64,000 nt of DNA from the NCBI GenBank assembly GCA_020137815.1, contig CM035357.1, positions 6,882,001 through 6,946,000 on the forward strand. Reading direction: 5' to 3'. Positions 44,601 to 50,600 of the stretch are shown piece after piece. Within the stretch, counting starts at the first letter, position 1, and each line of letters begins with the position of its first letter. Both the position numbers and the translations under genes were made by a program. Source of the stretch: Hormiphora californensis (lineage: Eukaryota; Animalia; Ctenophora). The notes below the pieces were generated by a model. That model was not told where the DNA came from and searched no databases. It saw only the letters and a list, made by a program, of their open reading frames with translations.

Positions 44601-47600
44601 TTGCGCCCACATTTTAACTTGTCAGATCTTGTCTGACCCGATGCAATCTTCTTGGAACGGGGGTCAGACATCTCTAAACGGTTTCTCGATTTCCCAATAG
44701 GGGGATATCAAAAGAAGCCAGATGAATTTCAGATTGTTTTGGGTGGTCAGGGGTGGTTATTTCATTTTTAGCTGGCCTATTCTTACTACTTACTGTTCAA
44801 TGAACACACTAATTCATACTTGGGTACCCGCTCTAGACGTAGCGTGTGCGACATCGTAAGAGAGGACAGCGCAGGAAAGAGAAAATAGGGGATTTCATAC
44901 CCAAAATTCATATACCTGGTCTGTTCTGAAGAACACACTAATTCATATACCTGGTCTGTTCTGAAGAACTGAGTCTGGAAGTTTCTTTACTTCATCTGCC
45001 GCCTCGGCCTCACTTTTAGATTGGGTTTTCTTCTTTTTCTTCTTCTTCACAGCTGACACACCCCCTGAAGGACAGCTATAGTGAGTGGATTGGTACTGAG
45101 CTGAGTGAATGGTTTATTAGCAGTCTTGCAGAGAATGATATGTTAACCCCTATGACACGCTCGTGGGGGGGGGGGGGGAGTAACGTCGTCACATATAAGG
45201 CGAAGAATAAAAATGAAACAAACATATTAATCGAGCATGTTCGTGCCCCATTCATCTTGCTCCTGCAGCTCTGATAAGCCATGTCATTAATCAAAGATCG
45301 GAGCAAGCTGCAAGAAAGAGCTATGATCGTGAGGAGGACCGGGTGAAAAACATTTCCCCGCTAAAATATCCTCCCAGCCCCCCATATTTACCTGATGATG
45401 TGGGTGCAGTCTTCTTCACTTTCCTCCCCTTCTTCCCCTTGTTCGCATCTCCAATATTAACCACGTGGGGTCTGATGGGCCCGCGTGATACCTTCTTTCC
45501 CCCAGCAGCAGCACCACCGTCCTCTGACCGTCTCTTGGCTGGATGGGCCGACCTGGAGCGCTTGATCATCACACACTGTGTTCTGGTACAAAATATGAAA
45601 TAGATGTGTGAAGATGTGTGTGATGGGGCATCACATTCTGTGTTCTGGTGGCAATATGAAATAGATGTGTGAAGATGTGTGTGATGGGGTAGTGAATACA
45701 GTGGGGTGGGTCGAGGCTGCCGTGCACGAGTTCGCTTCGCTATTTTAAGTGGCAAAAGCACTCTGAGGTGACGATACCGATCGAATCAGACTAAGGTCAA
45801 AACACGCTATCATTGTAGAGCATTATCACTGCGCTGGCAAGCGCAAAGGTGACCCCATCCATCCCCCGAAAAAAATTTCCCCCCAAAACGGACCGCTTGC
45901 TCACAGCGTATATATAGTTATTTCATACTTTTAGCCCATTTTGGCACTTTTTGACATGCCATAACTCCCGAACCGGAAGAGCTAGGAAGCTGAAATTTTG
46001 TACTTAGAAGCTTCTTGTAGACCTCTATCGATGGTAAAAATTTCAAGTGGCTAGCTCTTTTTGTTCAAAAGTTATAACACCACCCCCAAAACAGAAAATT
46101 CAGTGTGGGGATAACTAGGTTGATATATCACTGCGCTGGCAAGCGCAAAGGTTGCCATTCCCCCTCCCCCAAACAGCAAAGCGCCGCCAGAAACGCAGTT
46201 ATACGTTTTATGGGTGTTTTGACTGAAAACCCAGATTTCAGAAGGCTATAGCATGGCTCCCATTCATCCGTTTGACTTGAAATTTGGAATGTATACCCGG
46301 CTCGGGGTCATTAACTTAAGTTCAAAATTTCAAGTCTCTATCTCATCTGGAACTGAAGTTACAGACAGGTCCCATTTGCCCTAGATTCAGTGTAACACAT
46401 ATGCGCGCGCGCGCGCACGCGCGCGCGTAGGAGAGACGCTTTTTATAAACCATATTCACGCCAAACGAAAAGAGATAGAAACCTCTCGATTTCACAGCTG
46501 GTAGATCTACTGGATGTGTGTGCATTAGTCGATGTGAGGTCCCTTTTCATTGCCAGGAACGTCCTACAGAACGTCTTAAAGTCGTCATTTTTCAGACTCT
46601 GACTAAAATTCTTTGAGCTCATTTTACACCCTGAAGACGGATTCTAATCGAAAATCGAAGACTATATCATGGAAAGAGAATTGTCTGAACTTTCAGAAAC
46701 TATATCGCGAATTTTCAAAACTAGACGTATAAGGGTCTTAAAACGCGTCTAAAGTGTTATGACTGTTTAAAAATAGATATGACGATATGGGTTTTTTCGC
46801 CATAGCAGACTCAAATCTCATCCAATCGATCTCAAACTTGGTCAGTATCTTCATCTAGGTAATCCCAATGATATGACGTCATCATTATGACGTCATAACG
46901 ACGTGACGTCATTTTATGACGTCAAAATGACGTCAAAAATGAAAATTTTGCAAATTCGCGATTCCATCCTCTCCTTACCTGTTCTACTACATCTAAATGG
47001 ATAAAAAATCCCAAAAATGATGCAAATTATACCAAAACTAATTGAAATTAGTAGGCCGGAAAGGTTGCCCTATGATTTGAGCTACCTTTGCCACCGTAAC
47101 ATTCACGGGGTACAGTCAAGGTATAACCGATGCTTCTTCTATCTTCAAAAGGGAATGTACTGGTGCCAAAGGTAGCTCAAATCATAGGGCAACCTTTCCG
47201 GCCTACTAATTTCAATTAGTTTTGGTATAATTTGCATCATTTTTGGGATTTTTTATCCATTTAGATATAGTAGAACAGGTAAGGAGAGGATGGAATCGCG
47301 AATTTTCAAAATTTTCATTTTTGACGTCATTCTGACGTCATAAAATGACGTCACGTCGTTATGACGTCATAATGATGACGTCATATCATCGGGATTACCT
47401 AGATGAAGATACTGACCAAGTTTGAGATCGATTGGATGAGATTTGAGTCTGCTATGGCGAAAAACCCCATATCGTCATATCTATTTTTAAACAGTCATAA
47501 CACTTTAGACGCGTTTTAAGACCCTTATACGTCTAGTTTTGAAAATTCACGATATAGTTTCTGAAAGTTCAGACAATTCTCTTTCCATGATATAGCCTTC

Positions 47601-50600
47601 GATTTTCGATTAGAATCCGTCTTCAGGGTGTAAAATGAGCTCAAAGAATTCTAGTCAGAGTCTGAAAAATGACGACTTTAAGACGTTCTGTAGGACGTTC
47701 CTGGCGATGAAAAGGGACCTCACATCGACTAATGCACACACATCCAGTAGATCTACCAGCTGTGAAAACAAGAAGTTTCTATCTCTTTTCATTTGGCGTC
47801 AATATGGTTTATAAAAAGCGTCTCTCCTACGCGCGCGCGTGCGCACGCGCGCATATGTGTTACACTGAATCTAGGGCAAATGGGACCTGTCTGTAACTTC
47901 AGTTCCAGATGAGATAGAGACTTGAAATTTTGAACTTAAGTTAATGACCCCGAGCCGGGTATACATTCCAAATTTCAAGTCAAACGGATGAATGGGAGCC
48001 ATGCTATAGCCTTCTGAAATCTGGGTTTTTAGTCAAAACACCCATAAAACGTATAACTGCGTTTCTGGCAGCGCTTTGCTGTTTGGGGGAGGGGGAATGG
48101 CAACCTTTGCGCTTGCCAGCGCAGTGATATATGTATAGACGCTTTGTTACCATCCGTTTGGTCCCAGTTTGAGACGAACCAGACATCGTACGACCTTAAA
48201 CCAAGCGGCATTCGACAGATAATTGTCTCGTGCATGTACCCATCTCGGTGGCGACTCTCCATCTTACCTATGACGCGCGCAATGACGTCACGAGTGACGT
48301 CATTGCGCGAGACCGACTAACTTTTTTCAAACGCCTCTAGCACCCTGAAGACGTGTTCCGATTTCTGATTTGACGGAAAATCGTTACCGGCAAATCGTCT
48401 GAACTTTCAGATACTATATAGCGAATTTTCGTAGCTTATCATTTTGAGCCCTTAAATCGCGTCGAAAGTCAAAAATTTGACGAAAAATTCAGCAAATTCA
48501 ACGTTTTTCGAGCAAAAACTCCCTTTCCTGACCACTGTGGTCAATGAAACTTTACAAGCTCCTTTGGGGTATTGATTCAAAATATATCGTGATGCAATTA
48601 CGTCGTTACGACGTCACTAATTACGTCAAATGACGTCATTACGACGTCTAAAATACGATTTTCACAGAAATTCGTCTCGTTTCTCATATAGCGCATCATT
48701 TCGACAATATTACATCATGAAATAATCTCATGCTGCGATTAGAAACCAAAAAGGGACCTAAATTAAGCCAAAAACTAATTGAAATTAGTTGGCGGGAAAG
48801 GTGACCCACTTACACCTTTGCCTGCTGCCGGGATCAGGGATATAAGAGGTGAATATAATGGAATAAGACAGTGAAAGAGAGTTTGATAGTGAGAGACAGA
48901 GAGAGAGAGAGAGAGAGAGAGAGAGAGATAGAGAGAGAGACAGAGAGAGAGAGCGAGAGAGAGAGAGAGAGAATGAGAGAGAGCGAGAGAGAGAGAGACA
49001 GGGACAGGAAGACAGGGAGGAGAGAGAGGGAGAGAACGAGTAGGAATAAGTTACCCTCGAAAAATAAGAGATTGAGATACCGAGGGATAGAATGAGAGTT
49101 CGTGGTGATACCCGGCAGTAGCAAAAGGTGTAAGTGGGTCACCTTTCCCGCCAACTAATTTCAATTAGTTTTTGGCTTAATTGAACTATAAAATACTTTT
49201 AGCTATGCATCTTTTTCGAATAAACAAAAGGTTCATTTTAACCATTAACGTTGTCAATGATGATGTCAATGTTTTGTAGTATCTAGGCACACATAACTTG
49301 AAGATGTTCTAACTAACCACTTTCATATTGTCACCCTCCCTAGAGGGTTTGAACAAAAAAATTTTCATACTTCATTTTAAATGGTTAGAAACTGTCATAT
49401 TATATAGAGCTGTCAAGGCAGAGCTGTCTCTACTTTATTGCTTCGCTTTTATTAAATTTCATATCCAGTATTGGACAGCTGAACGAGACTAATATAATGA
49501 ACTTTGAATAATGGCCTAAGAGAGACCTCGAGGAGGAGGTACTATAACACTGCAACACAACTTGCATCGACTTCATAGTAATATCTACACAAATATATCA
49601 CCTCTTTTTATTAATGTTCTCTAATTGTTGCTATATTCCTTTGTTTTTTGTTTTATATACCCTGGCAGGGTAACCCTGCTAACTTAAATAATGCGCCAGT
49701 GGCGAGAAGTCCCACTAGCGCGCTCTCGATAACCAGCCAGTCCAGCGGCAGATTATTTCCCACTGGCAGGTTATTTATTTTTAACTCCTATGTTACATTC
49801 AAAGTGTGTGTAAATGATCAGTTCTTACTGAAATACAGAGGGAACACTGTTTGGAAGAGTTACACACTAAATTGGAGAGAAAGAAACAACACATTCCGTC
49901 AATTACTCTCTCTTTATCTTCCCTTTTGTTTCACTATCTCAATTCCTCTGTGTTATGTCTGGCATGCCCCATATCTTGTTATTTCTTTCTCTCTCTCCTT
50001 AGTAACTGTTACCAAACAATGTACACTCAATTGAGAGATGTTTTTGACTGTTTTTCAGTTCTCTTTGTGTGTTTTGATTAGTGTTCTCTCTCTTGTTAGT
50101 GTGTAATACTTGTAACAAACAACTAAAGCAGGGTATATAACCCATAAACTCTTGCCACAGACGCGTTATGGGTTTAAACCCCTCCGCCTCTCCCTCGGCT
50201 ACGCCTCGGGATCGTCGTCGTGATTTAAACCAGTTTATCCGCCAGTGGCGGATAAACTACAGCTACCTTCTCCCAGCGGCGCGCTGGGAGAAAGGTATCT
50301 GAAATAACGCGCCACTGGCAAGAGTTTATGCCTCATATATTTCTGTAGTTTGATCTTAAGCTATTCCATCTCATTCCTCGGCTGTAGTGGGTGCAGGAGC
50401 TCACGATAAAATGTTCGAATTCGATTTAATTAGTAGATCAGCTATATTTAGATCGATCCCCACCAAGACATGATTCCCCACCCCCTCCTCCGATAATGAA
50501 AATACTTTCACTACAGCTGCCGTGACCCACCACGTCGACGTTATCTATCCTAGCTTTTTCATCTCATCTGATTGCCATGTTAGCCCACTCATTCAGTATA

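Follow-up and report, generated by a model that had tools for sequence, protein, structure and literature searches.

The described rolling-circle transposons that come closest to the repeat family analysed here are Helitron2-type Helitron-like elements (HLE2), HINEs and canonical Helitrons (HLE1). FoHeli1 and FoHeli2 (Helitron2) have a TC start plus a hairpin and insert after TNAT; their 12-bp repeat is contained in a 3' hairpin 38–51 bp from the end (PMC5148889). DINE-1 and other HINEs combine a subterminal repeat and a nested inverted repeat at one end with a repeat and a stem-loop at the other and a microsatellite, and insert at TT (PMC4067079, PMC7492417). Head-to-tail junctions are a signature of Helitron transposition, and Helraiser needs its 5' end but can do without its 3' end (PMC5876387). 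Here, a family with related anatomy was characterised in a 64,000-nt stretch of the ctenophore Hormiphora californensis (assembly GCA_020137815.1, contig CM035357.1, positions 6,882,001 to 6,946,000; referred to as the window, with positions counted from its first letter), where hairpin-ended monomers occur together with a palindromic mirror dimer.

The reading that we favour (probability about 0.45) is that these copies form an abundant transposon family of ctenophores, non-coding and with two unlike ends each fixed at AT, which is moved as a single strand by a RepHel enzyme, and that the dimer arose by self-priming of the terminal hairpin. Its parts are held with different confidence. It is probable that the enzyme is of the HUH/rolling-circle type and that the family behaves as a non-autonomous Helitron2/HLE2 element whose target is AT and whose terminal hairpin is unusually long. 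Given such an enzyme, snap-back priming is the somewhat better bet for how the dimer arose. What is new in the family is the mirror dimer. No description of such dimers was found in the literature, although Repbase entries, subscription reviews and supplements may contain one. A first-pass annotation had proposed an undescribed system with an unknown enzyme; this part was not supported, since the monomer has the published Helitron2/HLE2 anatomy (PMC5148889, PMC4067079, as far as available) and head-to-tail joints exist.

By motif search and BLAST, exactly four relatives were found in the window, the number previously claimed. Monomer M1 (subfamily B, forward strand, 45825–49181 including both junction ATs) is split by the dimer and is 87% identical over 1022 columns to an uninterrupted copy, L001. 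Its CACTG end (45826–45855) consists of the 26-nt terminus described below, with a 6-bp GC stem-loop at 45830–45845, followed by the subterminal repeat AAAGGTGACCC at 45845–45855; its terminal hairpin (48762–49181, arms ~48762–48836 and 49106–49181) has a GA microsatellite in the loop and the fixed end AT at 49180–49181. The palindromic dimer D (subfamily A, 46127–48128 with AT at both junctions) sits in the AT-rich microsatellite of M1. Monomer M2 (subfamily C, reverse strand, 24376–25558, hairpin 24376–24591) is complete and is inserted at AT within a canonical Helitron RepHel gene. M3 (subfamily A, reverse strand, 1642–1922) consists of the hairpin at 1642–1847 and about 75 nt of body, with decayed arms. 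Of the three hairpin-ended monomers in the first-pass annotation all have the hairpin, but only two are complete, as M3 breaks off at about 1922 and its CACTG end is missing from the window. Since the truncation point (~1918–1922) is again at or adjoining AT, it could mark an insertion or an alternative end instead of a chance deletion. The three terminal hairpins measure 206–420 nt, in line with the 200–420 bp first estimated, and their DNA-fold z-scores lie between -10 and -26 relative to 40 shuffles. Subfamily bodies are 74–77% alike or alignable in short patches only. The longest Met-started open reading frame (ORF) in family copies has 42–60 aa and none codes for more than 60 residues; an Rfam search of 45800–49250 gave 0 matches.

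Evidence from beyond the window came from two marine-metagenome contigs (L001 and L002), the only contigs retrieved by motif scans of metagenomes and both non-coding, and from contigs assembled from five public runs (including X2, X3, X4 and X13). Per run, 3049 to 5603 contigs aligned to one dimer arm, and the family is therefore taken to be very abundant; no copy number can be read from these figures. No monomer:dimer ratio was derived from summed contig depth, as arms are common to several subfamilies and depth is no copy number. Motif scans of viral contigs for the family termini gave 0 and 0 matches. The scan of genome contigs gave four matches, all of them bacterial chance ones, none with AT, subterminal repeat or second motif.

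Both ends are defined. The CACTG end is invariant over 26 nt including the preceding AT (columns ATCACTG to AAAGGT) in 6/6 sequenced ends. TAT precedes five of the six, and A|TCACTG fits all six, though the T may belong to the target. Among the 24 rows listed for loose ends of contigs in this region (990 further rows), unrelated flanks begin before 46127 (11 contigs in X3, 19 in X4) or before 46126 (10 in X3), i.e. outside the AT, with an agreement of 0.42–0.45. At the other end, the hairpin stops at the same AT in all three monomers (49180–49181, 24377–24376 and 1642–1643), and each departs from its own inner arm directly after this AT or one T later. The end points first given, 49182, 24375 and 1641, each lie one base beyond the AT. 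The crude chance of three random truncations landing there is 1e-5. In the 24 rows listed for the hairpin region (274 further rows), unrelated long flanks begin before 47026 in 15 contigs from three runs (6 in X3, 4 in X2, 5 in X13) and before 47027 in two, and follow behind 47231 in six (3 and 3), 47232 in two and 47233 in three. Since 47026 and 47231 mirror each other, they represent one site, and 21 of the 28 flank-bearing contigs listed break exactly outside the AT. The remaining rows are loop or subfamily variants (those of X4 are loop variants only), and no comparable pile of flanks was seen in the element body among the rows listed. Random deletion within a palindrome was consequently rejected, and the claim of a defined hairpin end was borne out. 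The last bases before the T are TTAA, TAAA or ATAA, and the terminal bases TAAGC, TTAGA and TATAC are unlike CACTG. The uncut inner arm carries AT (AAATT) at the site that matches the cut. The earlier statement that junctions share only AT has to be extended by this inner copy, because of which the junction AT cannot simply be read as a target duplication.

Dimer D was confirmed as an insertion into the AT microsatellite of a monomer. Its left arm (46129–47104, forward) and right arm (47153–48126, reverse) differ at 22 of 977 columns (2.3%) and are separated by a 48-nt loop. The central hairpin from AT to AT (47026–47231) is the terminal hairpin of the monomer, with the conserved short palindrome at 47034–47051 and 47206–47223 and the subterminal repeat at 47060–47070 and 47187–47197. 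The flanks of D are the two halves of M1 and are not mirrored, and the microsatellite is unbroken at that site in L001 and empty of D in M2; D is thus a real insertion at one site. It had been called a head-to-head dimer, but in the orientation used for that name the hairpin ends are joined, tail to tail, and the CACTG ends point outward. The alignment of M3 to D scored 302 when D was read from 48126 and 164 when read from 46129, and two X13 contigs (records 4 and 5) likewise have the loop orientation of D read from 48126. D therefore consists of a monomer and an inverted copy of its body, and the left arm is the one that, judged by loop orientation, monomers of this subfamily are without. All three orientable subfamily-A monomers (M3 and these two records) are alike in this respect; X13 record 7 gives a weak hint of a flipped monomer. 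About 11 alleles found in a minority of X3 contigs occur in both arms of D, which argues for a single template or one small lineage behind the two. In L001, read from its CACTG end, the loop is flipped relative to M1; the contig continues beyond the monomer end for 53 nt of inverted body, with three mismatches to the inner arm of the same copy, and then ends. It seems to point to a dimer in a second subfamily, with short-read chimerism as another possible source, so that monomer and dimer forms would recur in more than one subfamily.

The first-pass annotation missed the Helitron2/HINE anatomy of the monomer. At the CACTG end a short GC stem-loop (z -3.5) is followed by an 11-nt repeat beginning 19 nt from the end. 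Further copies of this repeat (10–11 nt) lie in the two arms of the long hairpin: one in the inner arm, and an inverted one in the outer arm, 33–36 nt from the other end, where a short AT-rich palindrome (z -4.6) lies between it and the hairpin end. At all three places it reads GTGACC in M1, GTGGCC in M2 and L001, and GTTGCC in D; it covaries within each copy and differs in concert even between M1 and L001 of the same subfamily. When intact copies were compared, 4–7 of 40 arm columns were changed in both arms and 0–1 disagreed; the decayed M3 disagrees at 10. Such concerted change would fit pairing or copying within one strand. Judged by these predicted folds and repeats, the monomer has the published layout of non-autonomous Helitron2/HLE2 elements, with asymmetric subterminal repeats and hairpins at both ends.

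M2 provides another view of the target site. The RepHel gene that it breaks is a canonical one with introns (20790–28150, reverse strand; Pfam Helitron_like_N and PIF1; HLE1-type RGLPH motif). The part preceding M2 matches Helraiser residues 503–729 and the following exon resumes at about 731–750, with one codon and a putative intron between. As a partner enzyme this gene was rejected, since it has the HLE1-type motif and no family termini of its own. Three of the 12 joint rows listed (6 further rows) link, head to tail, a subfamily-B hairpin end to a CACTG end via one AT (runs X2 and X4). Their depths of 120–208 are like those of ordinary single contigs, and chromosomal tandems are more likely than rare circles. 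A palindromic CAGTGA-TCACTG junction was not seen among the 15 of 40 joints listed and would collapse in such assemblies.

Measured against the features that define the known groups, the family shows the asymmetric inverted repeats of Helitron2/HLE2 elements (about 11–17 nt there; 10–11 nt here, at 19 and 33–36 nt from the ends), with a short stem-loop beside the repeat and hairpins at both termini, the latter a feature of some HLE2 families. FoHeli1, FoHeli2 and FoHeliNA share with it a putative TC start, the short hairpin, an asymmetric repeat of about 12 bp in the far hairpin, a TNAT-like context and joined-end junctions. They differ in that the far hairpin arms are 70–90 bp here, that the near repeat follows the short hairpin here and overlaps it in FoHeli, and that the end is ..TAA(T) here and ATTTT in FoHeli; no partner was found here, and the available parts of the FoHeli account do not mention mirror dimers (PMC5148889). 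The HINE combination of subterminal repeat and nested inverted repeat, microsatellite, and subterminal repeat and palindrome in a non-coding element was likewise found. DINE-1, HINE-Mo and Cg_HINE resemble the family in high copy number, end layout, internal microsatellite and concerted repeats, but insert at TT with variable T runs, where the family has a fixed AT (6/6 CACTG ends and the loose-end piles). Their nested repeat is 7–12 bp long and 1–22 bp away, against a hairpin of 200–420 nt here, and their 5' repeat lies 2–4 nt from the end, against 19 or 33–36 nt (PMC4067079, PMC7492417). The family was not filed as a HINE because its target is AT and not TT, and HLE2 membership is unproven because no partner enzyme was found. 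Helraiser and other HLE1 elements share a short palindrome about 10–12 nt before the 3' end and precise head-to-tail junctions, and would share A|T insertion and a 5' TC if the T of A|TCACTG belongs to the element, but the family is without their CTRR end and has subterminal inverted repeats, which HLE1 elements do not (PMC5876387).

Other systems are more distant. Parvoviruses and adeno-associated virus (AAV), for which rolling-hairpin replication is described (PMC5714925), resemble the family in a terminal hairpin that could prime synthesis, in inverted dimers and perhaps in a loop of two orientations; the family is integrated and non-coding, with a long hairpin at one end only. Tetris is a non-autonomous palindromic foldback element with long arms, but makes 8–10-bp target duplications, and no fixed half-element form is described in the available part of its account (PMC4079207). 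Replitrons have short direct terminal repeats according to the partial source available; between the two ends of this family no direct repeat beyond AT was found.

We infer all enzymatic steps of the model that follows. A borrowed RepHel of the Helitron2/HLE2 type would nick A|TCACTG and displace the strand. Its usual second cut would fall at the AT past the short palindrome (..TAA|T), after which joining of the ends would give a monomer; bypass of this stop would give a head-to-tail tandem. The outer subterminal repeat would have two possible pairing partners: its copy at the CACTG end, giving a panhandle in which the ends lie side by side, and the inner arm, giving the long hairpin. In the hairpin state the freed 3'-OH would lie on its own template, so that a host polymerase could copy the body and run off at ..CAGTGA, and the self-folded dimer would then be joined into a target A|T. 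Snap-back synthesis, which the first-pass annotation had already proposed, is the simplest route to a dimer ending exactly at CAGTG and stands as the best, still putative, origin. The route needs the CACTG end to be the 5' end. This polarity is favoured by the A|TC start, by the likeness to FoHeli and by the precise insertion of a unit with CACTG outward on both strands. By analogy, such a unit would fit the essential 5' end of Helraiser. Also in favour, Table S10 of HELIANO has HLE2 in both ctenophores sampled (10 and 24; PMC11417382); DUF6570 serves there as a marker of HLE2.

Several points weigh against this account. No autonomous partner with the family termini turned up in the window or in the motif scans, and the RepHel gene in the window is a canonical HLE1 gene with no family terminal motif around it. 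Helentrons and HINEs insert at TT, not AT (PMC4067079, PMC11417382, PMC7492417). In HLEs it is usually the left end that varies more than the right (PMC11417382), and here the CACTG end is the conserved one; the DINE-1 layout also reads in the opposite direction. A conserved CACTG end thus argues for the opposite polarity, which would make the 5' end the hairpin-bearing one and leave no self-priming on the transferred strand. The dimer arms are not identical, their differences comprising 18 substitutions plus gaps, and D is the only certain dimer, as L001 extends just 53 nt into a second arm. Among the 32 of 3044 contig pieces listed, none spans body, loop and body, which in k-mer contigs is uninformative either way. 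The empty sites under M2 and under D each have a single AT, and, because of the AT in the uncut inner arm, A|T insertion and a 2-bp AT duplication would leave the same sequence. Insertion of one copy at another's end AT would also yield an identical head-to-tail joint, and copies do land near each other's ends: in run X2, where one joint connects 47232 to 47032, two hairpin ends of different subfamilies lie about 12 nt apart in one contig. Finally, long foldback repeats of other families are common in the window.

The same Helitron2/HLE2-type element might have acquired its dimer outside transposition, through a break, a template switch at the hairpin or recombination between tail-to-tail copies, with RepHel then moving a palindromic master by reading through the internal stop. 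We consider this unlikely, though it is the most serious competitor. Origin-dependent inverted-repeat amplification (ODIRA) produces inverted duplications seeded by short inverted repeats, according to the partial source available; the neighbouring hairpin ends of two subfamilies in run X2 speak for it, the 2.3% arm divergence agrees with it, and bypass of the 3' end is common in Helitrons (PMC5876387). Read-through would nevertheless still require a precise stop at CAGTGA, dimers were apparently made in two subfamilies (D and L001), and the minority alleles shared by both arms of D point to one template or a small lineage. That the palindrome is an assembly or fold-back read artefact is extremely improbable, and this was rejected: palindromes are error-prone in assembly and no listed contig spans this one, but the arms differ at 22 columns, the flanks are unmirrored halves of one M1 copy, and L001 has the empty site.

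On a cut-and-paste (DDE) explanation, the family would be a foldback element of the ISL2EU or EnSpm kind whose terminal inverted repeats (TIRs) measure 976 bp and which makes a 2-bp AT duplication; the dimer would be primary, and the monomers would derive from it through an internal substitute end. Animal EnSpm elements have CAC termini and 2-bp duplications, and D, with its CAC termini and AT on both sides, does resemble an ordinary long-TIR element, of which the window contains others. This explanation stays alive against ours because ISL2EU elements make 2-bp duplications, typically AT (PMC4122938, available part). The dimer alone, however, shares TIRs, CAC ends and flanking AT with ISL2EU and with EnSpm/CACTA foldback or miniature inverted-repeat (MITE) derivatives: three of the four window copies are monomers, and both complete ones have an unrelated second end. 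That end has no terminal bases in common with CACTG, yet it is used in three subfamilies and at least 21 contigs. The shared repeat is placed asymmetrically (19 against 33–36 nt), and the AT at the cut position of the inner arm is not predicted by target duplication. A DDE origin is thus regarded as quite unlikely. Among the ORFs of the window that were scanned, none was an EnSpm transposase. Lower still is the standing of a different, unnamed single-strand system that would normally replicate by hairpin resolution, as parvoviruses do, using another HUH enzyme or a site-specific recombinase whose core is AT. The fixed cut beside a conserved palindrome, the homogenised arms, the flipped loop of L001 relative to M1 and an AT target unlike that of HINEs would suit it. 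Every structural part nonetheless has a Helitron2/HINE counterpart, the orientable monomers share one orientation apart from the weak hint in X13 record 7, and the direct terminal repeats of Replitrons are absent.

If the dimer did arise by snap-back from a Helitron2-like strand, some long foldback repeats classed as DDE MITEs would be by-products of rolling-circle transposition; a DDE transposase using two unrelated ends would be unusual as well. The literature consulted gives no biochemically established mechanism for Helitron2/Helentron elements, and even the starting end is assigned by analogy. The monomers, tandems and precisely inserted mirror dimers of this family are natural products on which polarity and intermediates can be tested, and a dimer with the same end outward on both sides tells which end is indispensable. 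A bolder and rather doubtful extension is that in a ctenophore Helitron2-like lineage the nested inverted repeat was enlarged to a terminal hairpin like that of parvoviruses, and that the lineage regularly makes two products in alternation, end-joined monomers and self-primed dimers, the latter integrating whole and open to resolution into monomers. This would place rolling-hairpin chemistry inside a eukaryotic transposon and open a route from rolling-circle elements to foldbacks annotated as cut-and-paste MITEs.

The window as a whole is repeat-rich animal DNA of about 42% GC. At 14938–15889 and 20062–20858 several blocks of 135–391 bp, among them the end of the Helitron helicase gene, recur with 100% identity, in direct as well as inverted orientation. 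They surround a gag-like ORF at 19193–20140 (no Pfam match) and indicate either a very recent rearrangement or a feature of the assembly. Another foldback family at 34352–36292 has 365-bp outer arms and a nested 650-bp hairpin, and a stand-alone hairpin at 62709–63331 is 78% identical to it; the arms consist of a 164-bp unit. A long-TIR element at 30396–31583 (333-bp arms, 99%) encloses two further hairpins and is flanked left and right by CGA, apparently a 3-bp target duplication. Directly to the right of M1, 667-bp inverted arms (97%) surround 5 kb with several GA microsatellites (49673–55949).

RNase H2 subunit A-like ORFs split between two frames, with a DIS3L2-like ORF directly after them, occupy long intron-free stretches at 2548–4899. 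The best named matches of the DIS3L2-like ORF (3607–4899) are from Mnemiopsis and Bolinopsis (65% identity), and other named animals reach at most 51% among the 120 matches listed, which marks the host as a ctenophore. Two ORFs of 271 and 253 aa on the reverse strand at 58296–60833 have no Pfam match at 1e-3 and may be pieces of a retrotransposon polyprotein. A 36-bp satellite is present in 85 copies at 40699–43737, and a 63-bp tandem repeat occurs at 13224–13751 and, in opposite orientation and with 96% identity, at 55986–56773.

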